DNA of 31,361 nucleotides from an uncultured virus (IMG/VR IMGVR_UViG_3300030103_004079) (Duplodnaviria > Heunggongvirae > Uroviricota > Caudoviricetes). The stretch is from the IMG/VR virus record IMGVR_UViG_3300030103_004079. One strand, 5' to 3'. Shown one piece after another: positions 5,555-30,721 of this stretch. The notes beneath the pieces are model-generated. The model was not told the DNA's origin. It did no database searches and worked only from the letters and a program-made list of their open reading frames with translations. Each line of letters starts with the position of its first letter. Within the stretch, counting starts at the first letter, position 1. A program made the position numbers and the translations under genes.

Positions 5555-5782
5555 TCAAAATGGAATATTTTCTTTCTTACCCCTACGCTTTTGTGGGGGT
5601 AAGATAACATCGGGAACATCATTAGATGCTCTTATTGCTTTATGAGTTGTGTCCGGTGGTAGTCCACCAACAGAAAAATCACGATTCTTTGTAACCTTTC
5701 TAGTTTCATTTGCATTCTGTGTCTTTACTTTCGCTAATTCTTTCTTTAGTCTAATCTCTTTCTGTCTATTATCTTCTGTCAT
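5555..5782 (-). CDS. Small basic hypothetical protein (75 aa)
   Basis: TAATG-coupled to the portal stop; GAGGAGG RBS. Confidence 0.75.
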   Translation of the reverse strand: MTEDNRQKEIRLKKELAKVKTQNANETRKVTKNRDFSVGGLPPDTTHKAIRASNDVPDVILPPQKRRGKKENIPF

Positions 5783-7428
5783 TAACCTGTCCTCCTCTCA
5801 CTTCTTCTATCTACATTTTGATTACCTGCGTCTTCCGGTAATCCGCTTAATCTTTTATCCGGCCCTGTACTCATAGAAGGTTTATTTCTAGTAGCGGGTG
5901 GGTTTTCTTGTGGCTTACTACCGCCACTTTCTGCAAACATTCTTGTTTGTTCATCTAAGTCTCTTTGGTCTAAATTAGAACCTGCTAGTGGGTCTTTTTC
6001 TATGGGTTTTCCATCTTCTCCCATCTTCTGCCCCTCTTCTTGTGGTTCGGGTTTTTTGTAAGTAAAGTTACCGTCTTCATCCATATCAACTTCAAATCCT
6101 AGATTCTTAATAGAACCTGCAATACCGACTTCTAATTCTTTCTTTCTTAGCCCTGCTATTTCATCTTCTTCTTCACTTGGAGGAAGTTTCAATACCCAAT
6201 CAGTGATTCCAAATTGCTTTACAAGATAAGGAAATACATAACTATTGTAAACATTCTGTGCCATTTGAACTGCTCTATTAGTTACAAGAATCTGCATACC
6301 TTCATTGTTAAGTCCACCGCTTGTAGTGTTATCAGCCATGAAGACCTTACTTACTCCATAAAATGCCGATATTCTATCTCTTAAATCATCCTTAACAGAA
6401 ATATAATCCATTTCTTTTAGGCTATCCATAAACTTAATCCACTCAACAGCACCCTTACCACCTTCTGCTTCTATACCCATGACAGGAATAAAGTGTGGGT
6501 CTGCCTCCATCTTTTCTTTTACTCCTCTCCAAAAGGCTCTCATTGAATCCATGTTTCTAGTTTGAACGGCCAGTAATCCTCTTGGCATTCTGCTCTTAGT
6601 ATAGGCTGAATTGACATAGTTTTCCATAGCAATTAAAGTCATAATGTGATTATACAATGTAATCACAGGAGAAAAACCATAGAGTCTTGAAGGACTATAT
6701 TTACTGAAATGTAATACTTCCCCTTTAATGAAATACTGTTCATCGCCCTTTGCTCTATTAACATAGTGTATAGGCTTCAAAGGAGAACCACAAGTTTCGC
6801 AAGTATCGTGCGGTTCTGTTGAAATAACATCTCTATGGTGAACACAAGTAAATCCTTTGTTACCTTTTACGCCATCTTCATCAGCATAGATAAACATAGT
6901 AACAGGGTCGCCACGATACACTTCCTTGACACGGTGCATTCTAATTTTACCATTACCGTCTAAGAAATATTCCTTAACCATAACTATGTATGCGTCATCC
7001 ATAATATTCAAATCATCCTCTAGTTCTTTTAAGACATCAATAAACAATTGCTCGGATGAATTTACATATCCCTCTAAAAACTTTTCAGCATATTCTAATT
7101 GTTTAACATCGGGTATTTTTAAATCAGTAGAGCCACATCTTGAACATTCTTGAACAGGTCTTGTGTGGGTTTTTCCGCAATTATTACACTTTGCTTCAAA
7201 TGCTTTTTCCCAAACATAGCCTCTCCTGTAGACTTCCTGTTTCAATTGAGTTATACAAGTTCTAACAATAACTGATTGTTGAACCATAGAATAGATGATG
7301 GGGGCAGTCATCATGTAGTTATTTTGCCTTTCTTGAATACCCATGTTGTAAATATTCCTATCGGCAGGTTTTGGTGTAGTACGCCTGAAAAGATTTGTGA
7401 AAGAGAACCGTCTTCGTTTTTCTGCCAT
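5782..7428 (-). CDS. Portal protein with Cys/His Zn-ribbon-like insertions (548 aa)
   Basis: Portal-like segments 'GEVLHFSKYSPSRLYGFSPVITL', 'MPRGLL', 'RDRISAFYGVSKVFM'; CNNC..CSRC and CVHH..CETC insertions; same strand and module as the terminase. Confidence 0.85.
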   Translation of the reverse strand: MAEKRRRFSFTNLFRRTTPKPADRNIYNMGIQERQNNYMMTAPIIYSMVQQSVIVRTCITQLKQEVYRRGYVWEKAFEAKCNNCGKTHTRPVQECSRCGSTDLKIPDVKQLEYAEKFLEGYVNSSEQLFIDVLKELEDDLNIMDDAYIVMVKEYFLDGNGKIRMHRVKEVYRGDPVTMFIYADEDGVKGNKGFTCVHHRDVISTEPHDTCETCGSPLKPIHYVNRAKGDEQYFIKGEVLHFSKYSPSRLYGFSPVITLYNHIMTLIAMENYVNSAYTKSRMPRGLLAVQTRNMDSMRAFWRGVKEKMEADPHFIPVMGIEAEGGKGAVEWIKFMDSLKEMDYISVKDDLRDRISAFYGVSKVFMADNTTSGGLNNEGMQILVTNRAVQMAQNVYNSYVFPYLVKQFGITDWVLKLPPSEEEDEIAGLRKKELEVGIAGSIKNLGFEVDMDEDGNFTYKKPEPQEEGQKMGEDGKPIEKDPLAGSNLDQRDLDEQTRMFAESGGSKPQENPPATRNKPSMSTGPDKRLSGLPEDAGNQNVDRRSERRTG

Positions 7429-10023: not shown

Positions 10024-11874
10024 TCACATCTTATCTATTAAGTAAGCAACATGGTGGCTTAATTTGTCATCGGGGTATTCTTTCAATTCATCAATAGTAA
10101 TCCACTTGTAATCGCTATGCTCAAACGATAAAGTAGGATTCCAGTCATCTTCTACTTCTATTCTAAAACAATGATATTTCTTTGGTGGTTTCATGTCCCT
10201 ATCAAAATGAACTCCTAATTTAGATGATGGTTTTTTCTTTAATCCTAACTCTTCACCTGCTTCAATCATACAGACTTTTTCTGCATCGGGAGTTCCATCG
10301 GCGTTAAACTCGTCAAGTTCTTCTACCTTACCTCCGGCAAATTCCCACATTCCTATCATAGTATCTTCTTCGGGAGAACGCTGAACAATCAAAACTTTAT
10401 CTCCTTTGAAAACTGCCGCACCTGCCGCATGTCTAACACCATCTTTATCCAATAAGAATTTCTTTTTGTTGTTTCCTTTAGCATACCAAGAAAGTCCTTT
10501 GTCTTCCATTTCATCTTCTTTGATAATAACTCCACCAATGTTTTCCATACTATCCATTATAGACATCTTACAGTTGTCTTTGTATTTCTGTATATTGTCA
10601 AGGTATATTCCCTCTTTCAACCAATCAAACCCTACATGGTCTTTATGGTTCTCCCACTTCATTAACTTGAATATCTCATCACATCTTTCCTTATACCAAT
10701 CTTGTTTTTTGTAGGATTTTTTCATTCGTATAAGTTCCATAAGTAATTTAGCATTACCTTTCTTTAATCTAAAGTGTGGTAAGCACTTTTCTAATAAGCC
10801 ATAAACATCATCTTGAGAATAAAAATTTAATCTTTGAACCGGCCTAGTTTGTTGCGGGGATTTTTGATTTAAATGTAACTTACCGAAACCTATGCTCTTG
10901 TGCATCTCTTCCATAAATGCCCTTCCTCTTTCTCCTGTAGCAATTAACCCTACTCTTGGATTGTGGTTTCTGTCCATTGTAATATAACCATCCGAATCAA
11001 TAAAAGCCGCAGTATAAGCCCAAATATTTTTCTTAAGCATTGTTGGTAATTTATAATATGCTCCATCAACATTAGCAACATCTAACTTCTTTACCATTTT
11101 AGAAATCATATTTGTTGTCGTGCTTTTATGCAAAGTGTTTGGCATTCTATCGTGAATTTGTTTAGCACCAATAGAAGGACTCTTAATAATTTCACTTTCA
11201 ATAAAAGAAAGTATTCTTTCTTTCTTGCTTTTAGTAATGGACTGGTCACTAATGTTTTTTATTTGTTTTTTGTAATCTCTTTTAGCAATACGGCATTCTT
11301 TTTCTAGTTGAGCATATTCTTTAGAATAAACCATGTCTGTCTTATTCAAATCACATTCCCAATACTTACAAATGGCATCAATAATATCTCTTCTAGCATT
11401 GACACTACTAATTTTATTTATTTTCATCAAATCTTTTTCACTAAAACCCATCTTAAGTATTGCAGGTTTGTATGGCTTAATCCAATAAATAGAATCTATG
11501 CATTTATTGATATGGTCGGAGTAGCCGTCAATAACAGTATCAATAGCCTTAGTCATTCTAGTTCTTTGCTCTCCCTTTAATTTCCTTCTAGCCTTTCTCA
11601 TTTTCTTCACAAGGTCGGGAATGTTTTCTCCATCAATAGAATATTCACTAGGGAAAGAACTCAATTGTTTTCTAGCATCACTAGCGTTAATGTTTAGATT
11701 CTTAGAAAGTAAGTTTACTGCTTCATAATCGGACATAATGTAGTCATTAACAGAAGCCAGTTTAGTTCCTAATGCTTCCTCCACTTCATCCTTAGTATTT
11801 TCCTGTTCTTCCTCAAGTTCAGCAAGCCTAGCCATGTTTTGCGAACCTTGTCTATACTCTTCTGCTGTTGGCAT
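10024..11874 (-). CDS. Fusion protein: helical N-terminus + LAGLIDADG endonuclease-like domain + C-terminal Nudix hydrolase (616 aa)
   Basis: 'WAYTAAFIDSDGYI' LAGLIDADG helix and 'LLEKCLPHFRLKK'; Nudix signature 'VLIVQRS..MWEFAGGKVE...EAGEELG..EHSDYKWI'; AGGTGA RBS. Confidence 0.8.
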   Translation of the reverse strand: MPTAEEYRQGSQNMARLAELEEEQENTKDEVEEALGTKLASVNDYIMSDYEAVNLLSKNLNINASDARKQLSSFPSEYSIDGENIPDLVKKMRKARRKLKGEQRTRMTKAIDTVIDGYSDHINKCIDSIYWIKPYKPAILKMGFSEKDLMKINKISSVNARRDIIDAICKYWECDLNKTDMVYSKEYAQLEKECRIAKRDYKKQIKNISDQSITKSKKERILSFIESEIIKSPSIGAKQIHDRMPNTLHKSTTTNMISKMVKKLDVANVDGAYYKLPTMLKKNIWAYTAAFIDSDGYITMDRNHNPRVGLIATGERGRAFMEEMHKSIGFGKLHLNQKSPQQTRPVQRLNFYSQDDVYGLLEKCLPHFRLKKGNAKLLMELIRMKKSYKKQDWYKERCDEIFKLMKWENHKDHVGFDWLKEGIYLDNIQKYKDNCKMSIMDSMENIGGVIIKEDEMEDKGLSWYAKGNNKKKFLLDKDGVRHAAGAAVFKGDKVLIVQRSPEEDTMIGMWEFAGGKVEELDEFNADGTPDAEKVCMIEAGEELGLKKKPSSKLGVHFDRDMKPPKKYHCFRIEVEDDWNPTLSFEHSDYKWITIDELKEYPDDKLSHHVAYLIDKM

Positions 11875-11884
11875 TTATATCACC

Positions 11885-13327
11885 TTAAAAATTAATTCCC
11901 ATAACTCCTTGAGAGCGTTTATACTTGTTAACCTTTGGCGGGTCAAATAATCCCATGTCATCTAAGAGTATGAATGTTTCACTCATTGTATGAGTAGCGG
12001 CATTAGCCAATGCTAAACTCATAACCATGTCATCATGCGCCCCTATTCCCTCAAACTTCCCTTTGTCTGTAATAGCAAACATAGATAGTTCTTCTATCAA
12101 AGTAGAGGTAACTCTACGACTTTCTTCATTAGCGTAAGGTAATATTATCTTACCGTTTTCAAAGTTCATTTGTAAACTTAGAATAATCTCTTCTTTCTTT
12201 TTTCTAGTAGTGTTAAAGTCGTGAACATTTAAGTCTGTAACATTTCTAATCTCTTGTGTAAATGATTTAGCAAATGTATTTGTTTCAAATAATATTGCTT
12301 CGGGTTGAAACACTTTACCAATCAACTTTACTTTCTGTATGTTTTCTCTAAACTCTACATTCTTAGAACGGTCAATAAACACAATAGTTTTATTATCATT
12401 CTCATCAACTTCTAATACAGTAATTACATTGTAATCTCCATCAGTAGAAATAGCAGGGTCAATACCAACATAATATTTGTAGCCCTCTCTACGCATTGGT
12501 TTCAAAACATGGTCTTTACTCTTAGCCGCTTCCAAATATTCGGGATTAAACAAAGAAGTTCCAGTTGATATAGGAACACACATATATTCTCTTGTAAACA
12601 TAAGAGAACCGACTTCAGCCTTTCTTGCCATAAGAGCATCATAATCCCACCTACTAGGCCATAGGGGTTCATTGAGAGCGTTAAGACAAGGGTAGGTTCT
12701 AAGAGTATATGCGGGGTTCTCGGAGAGTTGTTGGTAAATATCTGTATAACTAAATGGAGTTCCAATAACTCTTAGAGAAGCAGTATGGTGAAGTGTTGGT
12801 ATCATGTCACCATAAAACCAATCTGTAACCTTTTGAATTCCTGTCATACTAAACTCTTTCAAAGGGTCGTCAATGATAATCTCTTGAGGGTGAAGTCCAC
12901 GAATCTGTGAACCGACAGAACGCTCTAAGATTTGATTACCATTAGTAAGTGTAATATTTCCTATCGCCCATCCCTTAGCAGGTTTGAATTTTTTAAGCAT
13001 AGGGTGATTGAATAGTTTATCTATATCTCTCATGTGAACCAAAGTCTGCTTTTGGTTAGAAGAAATGTATAGCATTTGATATGGTGGCTCTCTAAAAATT
13101 AAATTCCACACAACCCAACTGTGCATAAAGACAGATTTACCGTGACCTCTTGAACAAATGATAACAGTTCTTTGAGTATCGTTCATTAACTCTAACCACT
13201 CTTGTTGATGAGTTGCGAACTCCCAACCCAAGACATTTTGAAAGAAATATGGAAATGAGTTTTTAGATAACTCCATATCCATTTGATGCTCAAAATTAAA
13301 ACTATCTAAATCCATATTATCACCCAA
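11885..13327 (-). CDS. terL: Terminase large subunit (480 aa; start may be MDLDS)
   Basis: Walker A 'CSRGHGKS', 'IRG..IIIDD' Walker B, 'IGTP' coupling motif, RNase H-like nuclease 'GIDPA..DY' and 'HDDMVMSLALA'. Confidence 0.93.
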   Translation of the reverse strand: MGDNMDLDSFNFEHQMDMELSKNSFPYFFQNVLGWEFATHQQEWLELMNDTQRTVIICSRGHGKSVFMHSWVVWNLIFREPPYQMLYISSNQKQTLVHMRDIDKLFNHPMLKKFKPAKGWAIGNITLTNGNQILERSVGSQIRGLHPQEIIIDDPLKEFSMTGIQKVTDWFYGDMIPTLHHTASLRVIGTPFSYTDIYQQLSENPAYTLRTYPCLNALNEPLWPSRWDYDALMARKAEVGSLMFTREYMCVPISTGTSLFNPEYLEAAKSKDHVLKPMRREGYKYYVGIDPAISTDGDYNVITVLEVDENDNKTIVFIDRSKNVEFRENIQKVKLIGKVFQPEAILFETNTFAKSFTQEIRNVTDLNVHDFNTTRKKKEEIILSLQMNFENGKIILPYANEESRRVTSTLIEELSMFAITDKGKFEGIGAHDDMVMSLALANAATHTMSETFILLDDMGLFDPPKVNKYKRSQGVMGINF

Positions 13328-25084: not shown

Positions 25085-25638
25085 TTAATTTCAACTCTTT
25101 TTTCAAAAAATGTGGCGGAATTTTTGTGGCACTAGCGTAAAAATTTTTTTTATAACTATTGTATTTCCAGAATAAAAGTTATACTATTCATTATTAACCA
25201 TGCTTAGTTATAATCAAATAAACTACTATCCTTAGTATCTTTAATCTTACCTTGCATAGTCATTTTATTCTTAGCCTTAATGTCTCTAATGTATCTTAGT
25301 AATGTATTTAACTTAGTTTTAATGTCTTTTAACTCATCATCTAACTCTTCAGTATAATTACCACTCTTAGTTTTAGTCTCATTAAGTATTTCCTTAAGTT
25401 TTTGTGATATTGTATTTAACCTAGAAACTAAGCCAAATCCAATATCTTGACTAATGCAACAACCTCCTTTAACAGGTCGTAGCAATATAAGGGTAATAAA
25501 GGTAGTAGTTTTATGGGTTAATATGTTATACACAGTAGTTAATAAGTCAAAATTAACGATGAATGCTTATATTATTCAAATTAATAAAGAATAAAAATTT
25601 TGGAACAAAGCCATATGGTTGTAGAGCAACCAAATTAA

Positions 25639-25695
25639 CAAGCATATGGTTCACTTTAAGAACCCGAATAATATACCTTGTAGGGAATAGTAACC
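25639..25695 (+). promoter_or_regulatory. Cassette 1 promoter (representative of nine copies): CATATGGTTCACTTT-NN-GAAC-..-TATA-like box
   Basis: Conserved in all nine cassettes; ATG lies 53-54 nt from CATATGG in five protein cassettes, consistent with leaderless archaeal transcripts. Confidence 0.8.
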
Positions 25696-26046
25696 ATGAC
25701 AGGAATGCATATAGAAGAAACAAGAACGATTGGTTATGGTAAATTTTGGAAAATAAGTTTTATCTTATATTCATCCAGCAATTATAGGCAAGAAAGAGAG
25801 GAATTATACATGAGGTTTTTTGATAAATGGACAAAATCGCCAATCGGTAATTTTCCCTACAAAATATCTTCAGGCAAAGTGTTGAGAATATCATTTTCCG
25901 ATAAATCAGTTCCATACAGACAACAATACAATTCAAACACCCAGAAATACGAATCACATAAAACATATATGACTCAACAAGATATAGACGAATACAAAAA
26001 GTGGTTCTACGACTTATTTACTGAAGATTTGGGTATGGAAATATAG
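25696..26046 (+). CDS. Cassette 1 hypothetical protein (116 aa)
   Basis: ORF track; ATG at +53 from the repeat; followed by a terminator. Confidence 0.8.
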   Translation: MTGMHIEETRTIGYGKFWKISFILYSSSNYRQEREELYMRFFDKWTKSPIGNFPYKISSGKVLRISFSDKSVPYRQQYNSNTQKYESHKTYMTQQDIDEYKKWFYDLFTEDLGMEI

Positions 26047-26061
26047 AGTTATTTCGCCCTG

Positions 26062-26115
26062 ACGGTCAAAAAAACCCCCATTTTCTTAGGAATCTGGGGG
26101 TTTTACCTTTTTTTT
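26062..26115 (+). terminator. Hairpin + T-tract terminator, conserved-flank type
   Basis: ACGGTCAAAAAAACCCCCA...TGGGGGTTTTACC-T8. Confidence 0.8.
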
Positions 26116-26214
26116 CGAGGTTTGATGATGTTATATTTATTGAGGAGAGTATCATCAAACCATATGGTTCACTTTGCGGAACCCGCCATATATACTTTAC
26201 AGGAAGGAGTAGGC

Positions 26215-26607
26215 ATGTCACTGAACATAACATATCATAGGAGCATAATGAAAGAAAGTAAAGAAGATACCATCGAGGTTACTTGCTGTAGCAAAGGCAG
26301 TAAGCACTGGGAATATGCCTTAAAGGTCGTTTCCTCTATTGCCAAAAAGTCGTATTACAGCCCTCATGTTTATTTTGATTGGGGAGGCTCAAGCAAGTGT
26401 GTCATAAGAGTTAAAGGTTCATGGAATGCTGAATCAATGAGTAATTTCTTAAGAAAAGCATCAAGTGAAAGAGCAATCGAAAGCGGTCTTTTTAATGGTC
26501 GAAGAACTTGGGTCTTCAATCATAAAACAGAAGATTGGGAGCGATTCAATGAGGAAGAAGTAGATAGTCTTCCAAGTAATATCTACAGTTTAGATTTGTC
26601 GGAGTAG
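26215..26607 (+). CDS. Cassette 2 hypothetical protein (130 aa; MSLNITYHRS...)
   Basis: ATG at +54 from the repeat; the ORF-track 5' extension runs through the repeat and is rejected. Confidence 0.8.
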   Translation: MSLNITYHRSIMKESKEDTIEVTCCSKGSKHWEYALKVVSSIAKKSYYSPHVYFDWGGSSKCVIRVKGSWNAESMSNFLRKASSERAIESGLFNGRRTWVFNHKTEDWERFNEEEVDSLPSNIYSLDLSE

Positions 26608-26613
26608 ATAAAT

Positions 26614-26666
26614 ACGGTTAAAAAAACCCTGCAAGGTTTCGGCCTTGTGGGGTTTTACCTTTTTTT
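26614..26666 (+). terminator. Hairpin + T-tract terminator, conserved-flank type
   Basis: ACGGTTAAAAAAACCCTGCAAGG-TTTCGG-CCTTGTGGGGTTTTACC-T7. Confidence 0.8.
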
Positions 26667-26794
26667 GGTCAAGGTTTGGTGTTTACGCTACGCTCTAAAT
26701 TCATTATATAAATTACATTTATTATATGAATTTACACCAAACCATATGGTTCACTTTAGGAACACAGAATATATATCTTCCATCAAGGAGTAAG

Positions 26795-27001
26795 TGTCTA
26801 ACCGGTATAATAGACAAAGACTGACCGGAGTTAAGCGGCCTATCGGCTTAACACTATGGCCTAATGACGAGAGGAAACTTGGAATAGAGGTAAAAGTGGC
26901 TAGAAAAACATGGCGATGGATATGAACGCCCATATCCAACAAATCAAGTGTTTTTTGCAGGACTAGGGGATATAGGCTCTCCCCTAGTCCAAGTTTTTTT
27001 T
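26795..27001 (+). ncRNA. Cassette 3 candidate structured small RNA (~200 nt); alternatively a 43-aa GTG-start ORF at 26794-26925
   Basis: Full promoter and terminator but no ORF of 60 aa or more on this strand; hairpins TGTCTA/TAGACA, GTTAAGC/GCTTAAC, TGGATATG/CATATCCA, GGACTAGGGGA/TCCCCTAGTCC + T-tract. Confidence 0.55.
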
Positions 27002-27104
27002 ATTGAGGTTTGAGGTCGTTTTATACTTATTACTGTTAGTAACCTCAAACCATATGGTTTACTTTGGAATACCCGTTTCATATAGTTATGTAGAAGGAGT
27101 ATGC

Positions 27105-27422
27105 ATGTCGAGCGTATTAGACAAATTTGAGCAAGAACTAGCGAACACCAATGTAGTTGAATATGTGCAATCAGCAAACGGAGACATCAGTGCTGAAAAA
27201 ATCACTGAAATGTCAAATCGTAGAAATACACTACATAAAATAATTGATGCCATGAGCAAAATGAAGTTGAGTGAATCACTTTGGAATAAATTTAATCATG
27301 AAGAAATCGAAGAAATAGCAACTGCATTCAACAATGTTTTAGACAGTTTCCGAAGAGAAAATGATGGACTATACCAAACTATCCAAGATTGGGAAGAATG
27401 GGCAGACAGCCGACCTTACTAA
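27105..27422 (+). CDS. Cassette 4 acidic helical hypothetical protein (105 aa; MSSVLDKFEQ...)
   Basis: ATG at +54 from the repeat; followed by a terminator. Confidence 0.8.
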   Translation: MSSVLDKFEQELANTNVVEYVQSANGDISAEKITEMSNRRNTLHKIIDAMSKMKLSESLWNKFNHEEIEEIATAFNNVLDSFRRENDGLYQTIQDWEEWADSRPY

Positions 27423-27429
27423 GGTCAAA

Positions 27430-27482
27430 ACGGTCAAAAAAACGACCCTGTATTTAGGTGCAGGGTCGTTTTACCTTTTTTT
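27430..27482 (+). terminator. Hairpin + T-tract terminator, conserved-flank type
   Basis: ACGGTCAAAAAAACGACCCTGTA-TTTAGG-TGCAGGGTCGTTTTACC-T7. Confidence 0.8.
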
Positions 27483-27627
27483 ATCGAGGTTTGAGGTCGT
27501 TTTAATTAACTTACTAGATAGTAACCTCAAACCATATGGTTCACTTTGAGAACTCGGATTATATACTAAACAATAGGTAGGTGGTGCTTCAAGGGGTTGA
27601 AGTGTAATTATCATTGAGGTGAAAATT

Positions 27628-28104
27628 ATGAATATGGAAAAACTAGAAACTAATAGAAATAACATACGAACATGGATGAAGGAAAACGAAAGCCCACTTA
27701 ATGATGCTTTAGAGGGTCTACTCGTAGCATCTGAGTTGGCTAAAACTGATGATGAAGCGGTCAAGTATTGGTCGTCAATTCGTTCACTTTGTGGCAACAT
27801 GAGTCCTTCTCCTGTTAAGAAAGGTGTGCAATCAAAATACTCTACTGATGTTTTGGCTGTATTAGACGCTATTGGAACTGAAGTTAATGATGCTTCTATC
27901 CGCTACCATAACGACGGTATTATGTCTAAGGTATTGTTTTCTCACGGTAAATCCGGTGGAAAACAAATGCTAGCAGAAGTATTTGGTAAGACTATGAGAA
28001 ACATGACCATTGGAAAACTTAAGAAAAAGTTGGATGATGGTATATGGGACGGAACTCTAGCCGGTTTAGACTCCTTGACCGAAAAAACGGAGGATAATGA
28101 GTGA
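27628..28104 (+). CDS. Cassette 5 hypothetical protein, paralog of 29474..29983
   Basis: GAGGTGA RBS before ATG 27628; shares YWxSIRxxCGNxxxSPxxKG and DGxWDGTL with the cassette 8 protein. Confidence 0.85.
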   Translation: MNMEKLETNRNNIRTWMKENESPLNDALEGLLVASELAKTDDEAVKYWSSIRSLCGNMSPSPVKKGVQSKYSTDVLAVLDAIGTEVNDASIRYHNDGIMSKVLFSHGKSGGKQMLAEVFGKTMRNMTIGKLKKKLDDGIWDGTLAGLDSLTEKTEDNE

Positions 28105-28111
28105 TTAACAT

Positions 28112-28235
28112 TTCAACCCCTTGTTGCCCCTACTCCCGATTAGGCCGAATAGTGAAACTACTCTTACAGTGCAGTAAATAAGCACTTCTTAAGAGATTTT
28201 AAAAAATAGTTTCACTATTCGGTCTAAGTTTTTTT
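28112..28235 (+). other. Structured 3' UTR RNA element / terminator of cassette 5
   Basis: 20-bp stem 28141-28160/28207-28226 enclosing CTCTTA-CAGTGC..GCACTTCT-TAAGAG; T-tract follows; 28112-28123 complementary to the 5' leader. Confidence 0.75.
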
Positions 28236-28343
28236 ATTTAGGGTTTGATGCGGCCTTCGGCCTAAATGTTTAAAGAACATTTCATCAAACCATATGGTTC
28301 ACTTTAAGAACCCAATTCATATATCTATTGGTATAGAGATAAC

Positions 28344-28685
28344 ATGCGAAAGATAACTAGAGACGCAATAAACGCACTATATGATAAAAGAGACTTCAAG
28401 CGAGGTAATACAGAAATTAAAGAAGTAATCAACTATTCTTCTGCGACTAGTTGCATGGTTATGTATTTACACGGTAATGGTATTGCCAAACTTGAGGATA
28501 ACAACTTATACATTCGTCACGCAGGATGGCAAACTAACACCACTAAAGAACGCTTGAACGGCTTGCCAAATGTCAACATTCATCAAAAGGATTTCACATG
28601 GTATCTAAATGATAGAATGTGGGAGAACGGCAACGAATGGACATGGGTTGACTGCTTATCATTGGAAGACTTTTCTTTCAATTAA
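28344..28685 (+). CDS. Cassette 6 hypothetical protein ('YLHGNGIA..GWQTNTTKERLN..QKDFTWY', 113 aa)
   Basis: ATG at +53 from the repeat; motif pattern recalled from uncharacterised aquatic phage proteins (unverified). Confidence 0.85.
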   Translation: MRKITRDAINALYDKRDFKRGNTEIKEVINYSSATSCMVMYLHGNGIAKLEDNNLYIRHAGWQTNTTKERLNGLPNVNIHQKDFTWYLNDRMWENGNEWTWVDCLSLEDFSFN

Positions 28686-28717
28686 TATGAACTAATATAG
28701 TCCGAGTGACTATAACT

Positions 28718-28756
28718 GCCTTTCTCGACCCTTCGGGGTCGGGATTGGCTTTTTTT
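28718..28756 (+). terminator. cUUCGg-capped hairpin + T-tract terminator
   Basis: CTCGACCC-TTCG-GGGTCGGG followed by GGC-T7. Confidence 0.8.
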
Positions 28757-28859
28757 GGGGTTGTGAGTAATGTATTTTATAATACTAGGAGAGTATTACT
28801 CACAACCATATGGTTCACTTTCGGAACTCGAATTATATATCGAACAAGGTATAGTAGGC

Positions 28860-29325
28860 ATGTCGGGAGTCATGAACCGGCAGGGATTGACCGAACACCC
28901 TATGAACGGGGGTAAGGTGCAATGTTCCGAGTAGTTTCGGCTTATGTGACTATGATGCTCTAATGAGTAAGTTTTCACCTCTAAGGAAAAGTCCTTGAAC
29001 CTCAAAAGGGGAGTTATTACTAGTAACTTGGATAACATTGGCAGTATGGCTCTTGAGAAAAAGAGAGCGTTCAAAGTGAGTGCGACCCAATCGTATCATA
29101 CTTGAAGATACCCAACTCTTCATCCCATCCCATTCCAATGGCTATTAGTGGCCATAACACCATTGAGAAACAAAGGTGAAAGTCAAATCGTAAATGTAAG
29201 GCGGTCGAATATGCATGACAGGGTGCAAAATGAAGAATACTAGTTGTCCTTCAATCACTCCCCTCGATTCAAGCATCACGCATTCACTGGATTTGAACGA
29301 GTAGCCGGAGTTTCTCAATTTTTTT
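28860..29325 (+). ncRNA. Cassette 7 candidate large structured ncRNA (~400-460 nt)
   Basis: Promoter-driven, no plus-strand ORF of 60 aa or more starting downstream of the promoter; nested long-range helices and many local hairpins; ends with a hairpin and T-tract. Confidence 0.7.
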
Positions 29326-29473
29326 ATTGAGGTTTGGCATCGTTATTATTACTTTACTGGTAGTAATGCCAAACCATATGGTTCACTTTGAGAACTTGAT
29401 TCTTATACTATTAGACTAGTAGTAGTCGCTTCGCAGGGTATGAAGTAAACTTACAAACATCGGAGAGATAAAT

Positions 29474-29983
29474 ATGATGGAATATAGTAAATTAATTAGC
29501 AAAACAAACGATATATTGGCTTGGCTTGAAGTAAATGATGCCGGCGCACTTGAAGGCGCAATTAGAGGTATCATTACTGTTGCTCAAGTTGAAGGACAGA
29601 CAGAAAAACAATACGGTAACTATTGGGGTAGTATTCGCCAAATGTGCGGCAACCTCCCAAACTCACCAATCCGCAAAGGAACACAACCGTCTATACCTGC
29701 CGAAGCGTTAGCGTGTGTGGATTCTGTAGTGACTCAAGTGCAAACTGCTTTTGCGGGTATTACTGAAAGCAACGAACTAATTCTTGAAGTAGTTTTACCT
29801 TTTAGAAATACAACCGGAAAAGGTTTTGAGTCTATGGATGAACTTGCTGCATATATGGCAGGTCGAGCAAGAGACGCATTAGTCAAGGCTCACAAAGATG
29901 GCCGTTGGGATGGTACTCTCAACGATGGACTAACAGGTATGACTCCCCCTCAACCTGCATCAAAGAAGGAGGATAGCGAGTAA
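29474..29983 (+). CDS. Cassette 8 hypothetical protein, paralog of 27628..28104 (169 aa)
   Basis: GGAG RBS; shared motifs YWGSIRQMCGNLPNSPIRKG and DGRWDGTL. Confidence 0.85.
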   Translation: MMEYSKLISKTNDILAWLEVNDAGALEGAIRGIITVAQVEGQTEKQYGNYWGSIRQMCGNLPNSPIRKGTQPSIPAEALACVDSVVTQVQTAFAGITESNELILEVVLPFRNTTGKGFESMDELAAYMAGRARDALVKAHKDGRWDGTLNDGLTGMTPPQPASKKEDSE

Positions 29984-29994
29984 GGCTAACTGAT

Positions 29995-30133
29995 TACCCT
30001 GTGTTGCCCCTCTACTAAATACATTCGACAAATTAGCACCCAAAGGACATTACAACTCATACAGTCAAGAGAATTCACGACTTCTTATGAGATAGTAAAA
30101 AATAAAGTGTCCTTTGGGTGTCTATGCTTTTTT
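29995..30133 (+). other. Structured 3' UTR RNA element / terminator of cassette 8
   Basis: Stem 30037-30051/30106-30120 enclosing CTCATA-CAGTC..GACTTCT-TATGAG; T-tract follows; 29995-30003 complementary to the 5' leader. Confidence 0.75.
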
Positions 30134-30238
30134 ATGCAGGGTTTGAGGCGTAGAATAAGATTCAACAAAAGAATGTGCCTCAAACCATATGGTTCACTTT
30201 AGGAACACAATTGATATACGCTGTGGTATAGAGATACC

Positions 30239-30511
30239 ATGACAGTAATAGATTGGCATGCAGAAGTAAAAGAATATAAACAAAACTATGATGATGATGA
30301 TGGAATTCATGAATATATTGAGAGTTTAGTCCCTCAATATTTCGGTGACATCTATCAAACATATCATGATGAGATAGGAACACCCCTCAATATTGAAATT
30401 GAAGCACACCATGTTGGCCTTAGATTTTGGCGTATAATAGTAGGTCATATATTCGAGGCATACCTTGAACAATTCTTGACCGCTTGGCATGAAGTAGAGG
30501 AGGAAGAATAA
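30239..30511 (+). CDS. Cassette 9 gene A: Ocr (T7 gp0.3)-like acidic DNA-mimic / anti-restriction protein (90 aa)
   Basis: 'DDGIHEYIESLVPQYFGDIY...RIIVGHIFE...EVEEEE' parallels the T7 Ocr pattern 'DAIHMAADNAVPHYYADIF...RILQARIYE...EEVEE' as recalled; very acidic; ATG at +53. Confidence 0.65.
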   Translation: MTVIDWHAEVKEYKQNYDDDDGIHEYIESLVPQYFGDIYQTYHDEIGTPLNIEIEAHHVGLRFWRIIVGHIFEAYLEQFLTAWHEVEEEE

Positions 30512-30721
30512 ATGATACCAAGATGGAACGACGAAGTTTATCCGGTGATGTTCTCAAGTGACTTTGGGAGGAATAGTTCAATAGTAGCAATATGTAGTAG
30601 TCACAATGATGCAAAAAGATTTGTTGCTAAATTAGAGAGTGAATTAACCGACGATGAAATCGCAGAAGGTTATCTATATGGTATCTTAATGTTTAACATA
30701 ATAGAATGCGGAGAGGAATAA
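30512..30721 (+). CDS. Cassette 9 gene B: small acidic hypothetical protein (69 aa)
   Basis: Starts right after the gene A stop; GAGGAGG RBS; followed by a terminator. Confidence 0.75.
   Translation: MIPRWNDEVYPVMFSSDFGRNSSIVAICSSHNDAKRFVAKLESELTDDEIAEGYLYGILMFNIIECGEE

Follow-up and report, generated by a model that had tools for sequence, protein, structure and literature searches.

A conserved panhandle joining transcript start and stop codon in phage mRNAs: a candidate natural closed-loop mRNA

The element described here belongs to two paralogous genes, those of cassettes 5 and 8, on the plus strand of a 31,361-nucleotide (nt) stretch of DNA from an uncultured virus (IMG/VR record IMGVR_UViG_3300030103_004079; the whole stretch is called the window below). 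Both genes are carried by monocistronic early phage mRNAs. The element is, on the basis of covariation, a panhandle in which the 5' end of the transcript, a GCUUC segment and a G-rich leader strand face a 3' strand that runs from the stop codon on; because the 5' leader pairs with a 3' strand at the stop, the open reading frame (ORF) becomes the loop of one long interrupted helix. That this structure is real, conserved and maintained at the level of RNA is near certain from the comparison of homologous sequences. It is accompanied by a Shine-Dalgarno (SD)-like GGAGG in fixed register with the stop codon. We tentatively, and at somewhat less than an even chance, read the whole as a closed-loop early mRNA whose ends would be protected and whose terminating ribosomes would be kept beside their own start site.

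Leader/3' pairing in the window and in homologous genes

An earlier note on this DNA had proposed that leader and 3' untranslated region (3'-UTR) of two paralogous genes pair end to end across the ORF, with compensatory changes, and the sequence details given there are borne out. The two products share 32% identity (BLASTP, E 1e-22), and a long leader is indeed confined to cassettes 5 and 8, as the genes of the other cassettes begin about 12-20 nt past the promoter-like box. GCTTC..GAAGT hairpins lie at 27586-27603 in cassette 5 and at 29428-29445 in cassette 8; CAAGGGGTTGAA (27590-27601) exactly complements TTCAACCCCTTG (28112-28123), CGCAGGGTA (29432-29440) pairs with TACCCTGTG (29995-30003) with one G.U, and TTGCCCCT follows directly past the 3' arm in both cassettes. 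The complementarity is longer than had been stated, since a repeat search returned a 34-nt inverted pair (27572-27605 / 28108-28141). In minimum-energy folds of the whole transcripts, the closure of cassette 5 comprises 37 leader-to-3' pairs (27576-27616 with 28095-28134) in stacks of 6, 4, 16, 5 and 6 pairs, and that of cassette 8 comprises 22 pairs (29417-29446 with 29989-30017); the centroid folds of both retain the closure. The leader/3' duplexes of six other cassettes of the window gave z scores of -2.5 to +0.7. While the pairing itself stood, the earlier note had missed its span, from the transcript 5' end to the stop codon, and the GGAGG ahead of the stop. The genes and the parts of the two closures are as follows:

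27628-28104, plus strand: gene of cassette 5, 158 amino acids (aa), of an unnamed family, paralogue of the cassette 8 gene (ORF and BLASTP)
29474-29983, plus strand: gene of cassette 8, 169 aa (P0001), stop TAA at 29981-29983 (ORF)
27576-27586, plus strand: outermost 5' strand, P0, of cassette 5 (GGTAGG, GGTG), pairing with 28125-28134 (minimum-energy fold)
27586-27590, plus strand: GCUUC of cassette 5, facing GUUGC at 28123-28127 as C-G, U.U, U.U, C-G, G-C (homologue pair counts)
27590-27616, plus strand: 5' strand of helix P1 of cassette 5 (core CAAGGGGTTGAAGTGT, then AATTA and TCATTG; repeat search, folds)
28095-28134, plus strand: 3' strand of the cassette 5 closure, made up of the last codons, the stop, ACATTTCAACCCCTTG, GTTGCC and CCTACT (folds)
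29417-29425, plus strand: outermost 5' strand, P0, of cassette 8 (TAGTAG, AG), pairing with 30010-30017 (folds)
29428-29432, plus strand: GCUUC of cassette 8, facing GUUGC at 30003-30007 (homologue pair counts, fold)
29432-29454, plus strand: 5' strand of helix P1 of cassette 8 (CGCAGGGTA, with weaker AGT and CTTAC further in; duplex prediction, folds)
29980-30017, plus strand: 3' strand of the cassette 8 closure, made up of the stop region, TACCCTGTG, TTGCCCCT and CTACTA (duplex prediction, folds)

In cassette 5, the 5' strand of P1 stops at the first base of the SD sequence GAGGTG (27616-27621), and in cassette 8 the CTTAC of the leader can pair with GTAAG at 29980-29984, which contains the stop codon.

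Relatives of the two proteins fell into 24 clusters in a word-indexed protein search and into 173 clusters at 50% identity in a full hidden Markov model search, 16 of them below 1e-30. From the 94 loci fetched (14 viral and 80 metagenomic), 83 were usable, having a complete ORF, at least 90 nt upstream and at least 150 nt downstream; contig ends truncated ten, and one (L081) has an early in-frame stop. Together with the two window copies, these make 85 units, of which 62 remain once copies with the same leader and 3' flank are counted only once (cassette 8 and L015 being such copies), and the duplex tests were run on 61 units because one (L057) contains an N. For these tests, the leader from -65 to -13 was paired with the stop codon plus 42 nt, against 100 dinucleotide shuffles. 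With longer pieces, namely a 100-nt leader and a 3' piece of 45 nt from the ORF end plus 70 nt, the duplexes over-extend into scattered pairs, and boundaries were not drawn from them.

Leader/3' pairing was present in 61/61 of these non-redundant units, with duplex energies averaging -37.0 kcal/mol (range -27 to -48) and a median z score of -5.7 relative to the dinucleotide shuffles (60 of the 61 below -3), whereas non-cognate combinations of leader and 3' piece averaged -21.8 kcal/mol. The cognate 3' piece ranked first of 61 partners in 31 units and among the top three in 49, the remainder being beaten by close relatives only. With the units anchored at GCUUC and GUUGC, positions 1-8 of the P1 core form standard pairs in 60-61 of the 61 units, using up to six pair types per position: at position 2 these are UA 33, AU 18, CG 9 and GC 1, and at position 7 UA 38, AU 14, GC 3, GU 3, CG 2 and UG 1. 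The eight-pair core occurs in 20 distinct haplotypes, 18 of them fully complementary (8/8) and two complementary at 7/8. An unsupervised MAFFT alignment of whole units gave a covariation score of 0.330, compared with 0.155 +/- 0.009 in column shuffles, none of 500 of which reached 0.330, and with 0.07-0.13 when the partners were slid; 13 of 19 pairs change on both sides in this alignment, where paired cells go down to 79% because the inner helix of two subfamilies is misplaced. End-to-end closure of the mRNA with compensatory changes, as the earlier note had it, is thus strongly supported by the duplex z scores and by the covariation in the flanks of homologues. Among the pair cells, G.U outnumbers A.C by 91 to 10, and therefore selection acts on the sense RNA; in 55 of the 61 units, the sense duplex also exceeds its antisense counterpart in stability, by 6.35 kcal/mol on average. 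In whole transcripts of 18 diverse units, the ensemble pair probability of the P1 core was 0.87-1.00 in all 18.

From the outside inward, the helix consists of P0, the GCUUC/GUUGC module, the P1 core and an inner extension. P0 starts 8-10 nt past the -10 hexamer, at about the point where transcription is predicted to begin, and its 3' partner bases are CUACU-like; they are preceded in the helix by GUUGCC and by a C-rich strand that starts at or just past the stop codon. Within the module, position -1 is C-G in 56/61 units, position -2 is U.U in 55/61, position -3 is U.U in 36/61 and otherwise some other combination, position -4 is paired in 61/61 and covaries (CG 51, GC 5, UG 5), and position -5 is G-C in 57/61. 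The P1 core joins a G-rich leader strand to a C-rich strand of the 3'-UTR. The inner extension differs among subfamilies yet reaches the stop codon, and in several subfamilies a TGA stop is itself paired; the 3' strand of the duplex starts within 2 nt either side of the end of the stop in 61/61 units, the test piece itself having started at the stop. The leader end of the helix lies 5-30 nt 5' of the SD sequence, or at its first base in cassette 5. Past the closure, the make-up of the 3'-UTR depends on the subfamily: the window type has long hairpin terminators, another has a simple terminator, and a third has additional structure over about 190 nt.

In the window type and several subfamilies, GCUUC can alternatively pair with a downstream GAAGU to form a local 5' hairpin, whose arms covary among subfamilies (GCUUC/GAAGU, GGCUCAA/UUGAGUC, CCUCAA/UUGAGG, UCUCAAA/UUUGAGA); the largest subfamily is without it. 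The leaders of the two window cassettes alone fold at -9.5 and -10.9 kcal/mol. In 18 units, the predicted mean probability that SD and AUG are unpaired was 0.24-0.82 with the 3' strand and 0.26-0.83 without it (transcripts cut at the stop), and the closure is thus not predicted to mask the true ribosome-binding site. Rfam (release 15) gave 0 matches at the gathering score in the window; at E up to 1, a manA match in cassette 7 was the sole one within 27400-30250, and none lay over the leaders or 3'-UTRs. A reading of the paired ends as transfer RNA- or transfer-messenger RNA-like was rejected, as ARAGORN finds none, and an antiterminator, in which the 3' strand would pair with an arm of the terminator, was dropped with just about five weak pairs visible by eye.

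The GGAGG ahead of the stop codon

The second conserved part of the element lies inside the ORF, as found by a scan of the units:

28089-28093, plus strand: SD-like GGAGG of cassette 5 (ACG GAG GAT), 8 nt 5' of the stop TGA at 28102-28104
29968-29972, plus strand: SD-like GGAGG of cassette 8 (AAG GAG GAT), 8 nt 5' of the stop TAA at 29981-29983

GGAGG occurs in the last codons of 62/62 units, always in the frame xxG GAG Gxx, and its distance from the stop is 8 nt in 55 and 14 nt in seven of the 62. Elsewhere in the ORFs of the units, GAG makes up 17% of the Glu codons (117/688) and G 17% of third positions, and only ten other GGAGG occur in 31,680 nt. The residues around the motif vary, with K, T, S, M or E before the E (codons AAG, ACG, TCG, GAG, ATG), and in three loci of a more distant branch (L106-108) GGAGG is built from the Gly codons GGA GGT, 13 nt from the stop. 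The variable residues and the use of Gly codons in L106-108 therefore indicate a constraint on the nucleotides and on their register to the stop. A conserved RNA partner of GGAGG was not found in the folds of 18 units, in which its predicted unpaired probability is 0.01-0.80.

With the stop codon in the A site, GGAGG would lie 5 nt from the P-site codon, a spacing like that of initiation. No start codon or ORF follows the stop, the place of the start codon being taken by the gene's own stop; of a termination-reinitiation coupling site, the SD-like part is present (62/62) and the downstream start part absent. Among the other cassette ORFs of the window, GGAGG ends only 30239-30511, where it is the SD sequence of the coupled gene at 30512, 8 nt from the ATG. 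This translational coupling (30239-30511 / 30512-30721) resembles the closed-loop genes in having GGAGG in the last codons at the identical spacing of 8 nt and differs in that no start codon or ORF lies downstream of the latter. The two coupled genes (plus strand) form the sole two-gene cassette; the stop TAA of the first directly abuts the ATG of the second, and GAGGAGG stands 8 nt 5' of that ATG. Programmed frameshifting or readthrough at the stop was considered and rejected: a conserved slippery site is lacking, the sense codons at the ORF end differ among units (GAG, CAC, GTC, GTG, CTC, GAA), the 3' strand covaries as RNA and not as codons, and the spacing between the SD-like sequence and the P site is 5 nt (it is 3 nt in prfB).

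Related phage records hold two to four paralogues within a few kilobases (kb), and closure and GGAGG go together in the further branches of the family: both are present in eight loci (L096, L104, L105, L106-108, G002a, G001a) and both absent in six (L095, L097, L098, L099, G003b, G004c), with none of these 14 loci having one feature alone. L096 and L105 have the closure without the GCUUC/GUUGC module. In L106-108, the helix is visible by inspection and in two of three duplex predictions, with compensatory GCAGGGUA/UACCCUGC versus GGAAGGCAUU/AAAUGCCUUCC. Five loci without either feature (L097, L098, L099, L114, which is G003b, and L118, which is G004c) belong to a paralogue clade with the motifs GTPFRRG, KHxKSGGG and WDGSV, and they lie a few kb from closed-loop copies in the same phages. 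Four of the five, L118 being the exception, have a local GCCC-loop-GGGC hairpin in the leader, just 5' of the ribosome-binding site.

A closed-loop mRNA and its rivals

5'-end-dependent decay is slower when the 5' end is paired, a ribosome at a stop codon covers or melts no more than about 10 nt on the downstream side, and the tail of 16S ribosomal RNA (rRNA) pairs with an SD sequence that lies 5-9 nt upstream of the P site. Against this background, the closure would conceal the 5' end, which should shield the mRNA against 5'-end-dependent decay, and it would keep the stop codon beside the gene's own ribosome-binding site. The local 5' hairpin, in those subfamilies that have it, may hold the leader until the 3' strand has been transcribed. 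Once a ribosome terminates, GGAGG could pair with its 16S rRNA tail at initiation-like spacing, and the small subunit might then be retained and passed to the start site, a distance of about 25-45 nt along the leader. A ribosome standing at the stop would not reach as far as the G/C-rich outer P1 core, which would therefore stay closed meanwhile. In sum, early in infection the mRNA would be long-lived and would be re-initiated efficiently. The strictest form of this proposal, a natural prokaryotic closed-loop mRNA in which RNA pairing ties the 5' end to the stop and GGAGG retains the small subunit for re-initiation on the same ORF, is possible, though we consider it doubtful.

Several observations weigh against the closed-loop reading. 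The folds predict partial pairing of GGAGG in some units (unpaired probability down to 0.01 in the range of 0.01-0.80 given above), and in the 14-nt subfamily it lies in a local CGGAGG...CCUCCG hairpin. The joint absence of closure and GGAGG represents few independent events, since the loci without both are mostly one paralogue clade. In the close pair L095/L096, the GGAGG of L096 is 2 nt from the stop and may be due to chance, as it is built from three GAG codons (a GAG GAG GAG tail). The closure of L106-108 was not significant in a crude shuffle test (z -1.9, -0.5 and 0.0). A duplex of 20-37 base pairs (bp) could be a substrate of RNase III instead, and the conserved U.U module is the feature that the closed-loop model explains least well.

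Alternatively, the panhandle may stabilise the mRNA by end protection only, its paired 5' end blocking the entry of pyrophosphohydrolase, RNase E or RNase J, and GGAGG may have a separate role, for example by pausing ribosomes at the stop or by shielding the 3' portion of the ORF. The bases predicted to be transcribed first are paired in P0, hbs offers a precedent (PMC5737220), and the closure-less paralogue clade has its GCCC-loop-GGGC hairpin instead, which suggests 5' structure as a common need. We nevertheless regard this as rather unlikely, as a local 5' hairpin would suffice for the purpose, and as it leaves unexplained why the partner strand starts at the stop in all subfamilies, why the register between GGAGG and the stop is fixed and why GGAGG and closure are lost jointly. 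Stems flanking 16S and 23S rRNA and internal-loop sites of T7 early mRNAs are precedents for a processing stalk, in which host RNase III would cut the duplex and trim leader and terminator while the new ends stay paired. Such stalks have about two turns or more of double-stranded RNA, often with an internal loop at the cut, which would suit the 22-37 pairs or more and the conserved internal module at a fixed place, and contigs assembled from RNA libraries hint very weakly in the same direction, as those of cassette 8 start at 29452, just past the P1 core (two runs, one sample). The contig of cassette 5, however, starts at 27586, those of cassette 8 extend to 30011-30048, beyond the 3' strand, and GGAGG would have no explanation; we judge RNase III processing unlikely.

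The U.U module, in turn, might be an autoregulatory operator, that is, GCUUC/GUUGC with its tandem U.U would bind the encoded (or another early) protein and so control stability or translation of the mRNA. It is conserved in sequence at -5 to -1 while the neighbouring pairs covary, is confined to this gene family and is missing from six other window cassettes, and the protein has conserved basic motifs such as LPNSPIKKGRGS. Profile and fold searches, on the other hand, found no RNA-binding fold or family for the protein, L105 and L096 keep the closure without GCUUC/GUUGC, and the closure-less paralogues retain the same protein motifs, all of which makes an operator quite improbable. Of the known systems, the type I toxin-antitoxin pair hok/sok of plasmid R1 is nearest in architecture: in the tac/fbi fold-back of hok mRNA, pairing links the very 5' end to the 3' end, the nascent chain having first folded into a local 5' hairpin, and the pairing covaries among homologues. 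In the phage element, too, the two ends of the full-length mRNA are joined, with covariation, and there is a potentially metastable local 5' hairpin, so that the closure might lock the full-length transcript in an inert state until 3' processing frees the leader and activates translation. We hold this to be very improbable. Access to SD and AUG is predicted to be equal with and without the 3' strand in the 18 units, the largest subfamily has no local hairpin, and neither an antisense promoter nor an antisense RNA was seen (a promoter scan of 27400-30300 gave no conserved minus-strand promoter at either leader; no search was aimed at antisense RNA). The products, predicted to be soluble helical proteins of 158-183 aa with an acidic tail, are moreover not like the small hydrophobic toxin of hok (about 50 aa or less). 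The likeness to type I toxin mRNAs drawn in the earlier note therefore holds for the 5'/3' pairing and the local 5' hairpin, kept in several subfamilies, and fails for the encoded product and for masking of the start, which is not predicted; the SD-like GGAGG, in addition, belongs to the phage module. Finally, since inverted repeats flank a single gene that is multi-copy in each phage, they could in principle act as DNA, as ends of a mobile cassette or as a recombination site. The sense-strand stability and the G.U excess argue against terminal repeats of a mobile element; the arms lie within the transcription unit in fixed register with stop and promoter, and their sequences vary freely, unlike transposase-bound ends. 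This explanation is disfavoured to the point of being hardly tenable.

To our knowledge, long-range pairing of 5'- and 3'-UTR has been described for very few bacterial mRNAs (hok, icaR, hbs), and in each case within a narrow group. The hbs mRNA of Bacillus subtilis has a long-range 14 bp 5'/3'-UTR duplex that modulates the access of ribonucleases to the leader (PMC5737220). The phage mRNAs share with it a long-range UTR duplex in a short monocistronic mRNA; they differ in that hbs is a host gene, whereas the phage duplex has 22-37 pairs or more, spans from transcript start to stop and comes with the U.U module and GGAGG. In Staphylococcus aureus icaR, the 3'-UTR reportedly covers the SD sequence, represses translation and promotes cleavage by RNase III. 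Pairing of 3'-UTR and 5'-UTR within the same icaR mRNA is described in PMC3868564. In icaR, too, a C-rich strand of the 3'-UTR reportedly pairs with a G-rich strand of the 5'-UTR, but the paired G-run of the phage mRNAs lies 25-45 nt upstream of the start and leaves the true SD open according to prediction; anti-SD pairing of the icaR type was not found, the helix of cassette 5 merely touching the first base of GAGGTG. The phage element belongs to none of the three systems, as it has no small toxin, no SD masking and a different gene family.

Eukaryotic mRNAs form closed loops, and 3' cap-independent translation enhancers of plant viruses act through 5'/3' kissing interactions. The proposed principle, bringing a 3' ribosome-binding element to the 5' start so that the closed mRNA is stable and gives a higher output, would be common to these, to the phage element and to engineered circular bacterial mRNAs (PMC13563091). 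The systems other than the phage element use protein bridges, cap-binding factors or covalent circles, and the phage bridge would consist of RNA pairing plus an SD/anti-SD contact. A 2025 preprint (PMC12697547) reports that long-range pairing within bacterial mRNAs acts in vivo, which makes the phage structure plausible in cells. Among open-access titles and abstract starts, with subscription journals outside that scope, nothing turned up on this phage element or on an SD-like sequence before the stop combined with 5'/3' pairing. What is new in this element is the combination of 5'/3'-UTR pairing with a conserved ribosome-related GGAGG; the mechanism we infer from sequence.

The phage case is one of deeply conserved, covariation-supported 5'/3' pairing in uncultured marine phages of a widespread lineage, about 80-96 kb in size, and its exact geometry, from transcript start to stop codon, together with GGAGG in a fixed stop register, points to the ribosome. 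If the closed-loop reading is true, recycling of ribosomes in cis by mRNA closure would extend beyond eukaryotes and their viruses, the phage would encode a counterpart of the eukaryotic cap/poly(A) loop and of the plant-virus 3' translation enhancers, and a compact, protein-free part of about 90 nt would be at hand for stabilising bacterial mRNAs and raising their translation. If end protection alone is true, the element would still be a clean natural system for relating mRNA topology to decay.

The encoded protein, transcription and neighbouring cassettes

The protein family that goes with the element, with its 173 clusters at 50% identity and two to four copies per phage, has no assigned function. 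It comprises proteins of 158-183 aa that are predicted to be soluble and helical with an acidic tail, and an AlphaFold2 model (19-row alignment; mean predicted local distance difference test score 77, predicted template modelling score 0.48) has six helices and a disordered acidic tail. The fold comparison suggested in the earlier note was uninformative: neither window protein matched Pfam or PHROG beyond noise at E up to 1, 0/98 family members matched Pfam or PHROGs at E 0.001 or better, the best hit of a sequence profile in PDB had E 0.09, and Foldseek against PDB returned nothing at E 0.001 or better. A VIA-wide fold search gave generic three-helix bundles only (Z 7.8 or less), two BFVD matches (E 3e-5 and 2e-4) are unnamed viral proteins, and ESM Atlas gave nothing above 0.76.

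RNA-library contigs from four libraries, representing at most three samples, cover 27586-27760, 27907-28087 and 29452-30048. They are a weak sign of transcription of both genes, being assembled contigs and hence without ends, strand or level. Further contigs fall on cassette 7 (word depth 42-62) and none on cassette 6, the uncovered parts being uninformative.

The window is phage-like, with a portal gene at 5782-7428 and a large terminase gene at 11885-13327 (both minus strand). No match was found among cultured phage records (DNA query 27400-30250; protein query P0021), and the terminase has only distant relatives at 22-28% identity; on these searches, the window phage is without a close cultured relative. 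P0028, used as a single query in the search for related loci, gave nothing. From about 25.6 kb on, the plus strand is a series of short cassettes, each running from a promoter-like box to a terminator, and this position suggests that the two genes are early genes. A near-identical box, AACCATATGGTTCACTTT ... TATAyy, stands at the cassette starts and was repeated in seven cassettes in a repeat search of the window; in a consensus scan it reads TTCACT-16-TATACT. The boxes and terminators of the two cassettes are:

27540-27567, plus strand: promoter-like box of cassette 5 (TTCACT, 16 nt, TATACT; consensus scan), start predicted near 27573-27576
29382-29409, plus strand: promoter-like box of cassette 8 (TTCACT, 16 nt, TATACT; consensus scan), start predicted near 29414-29418
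28140-28235, plus strand: long imperfect terminator hairpin of cassette 5 with T run, arms 28140-28165 / 28202-28227, containing the shared ACTTCTTAAGAGAT (repeat search, fold)
30037-30133, plus strand: long terminator hairpin of cassette 8 (CACCCAAAGGACA ... TGTCCTTTGGGTG) with T run, containing ACTTCTTATGAGAT (repeat search, fold)

Just 5' of TTCACT-16-TATAyy, the box of every cassette has a palindrome, CCATATGG, in at least seven copies on the plus strand of 25637-30241. A hairpin with conserved arms (GGTTTGAGG ... CCTCAAACC) and a variable middle stands 5' of the box. This arrangement may serve as a site for a regulator or as an upstream element common to all early promoters of the phage lineage.

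Between the two closed-loop genes lie cassettes 6 and 7. Cassette 6 (28344-28685, plus strand) encodes a member of Pfam Kyano_Gp96 (match at E 1e-20) and of phrog_554 (at E 5e-24), a family that has no assigned function and occurs in cyanophages, and its gene also stands behind a closed-loop gene in two of the homologous loci (L005 and L007). Cassette 7 (28861-29131, plus strand) has no long ORF and aligns with the full length of the Rfam model of manA RNA (RF01745) at 47.5 bits (E 2e-10), the gathering score of 55.2 not being reached; the manA family recurs in the cassette behind the homologous gene of L024 (2231-2497, 46.2 bits), with a weak match in L008. Behind the manA-like match, a non-coding stretch at 29131-29320 (plus strand), TTCCAATGGCTATTAGTGGCCATAACACC..., recurs in L004, L052 and L056, where it sits directly past the 3' helix of the homologous gene and replaces the terminator; it may be a second structured RNA domain. 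The product of 30239-30511, the first gene of the coupled pair, is very acidic and gave non-significant matches to Ocr-like DNA mimics (Pfam E 0.08, PHROG E 0.07). Beside the terminase gene, an ORF of 616 aa (10024-11874, minus strand) is HNH endonuclease-like at residues 286-404 and NUDIX hydrolase-like at 472-604, judging by PHROG matches.

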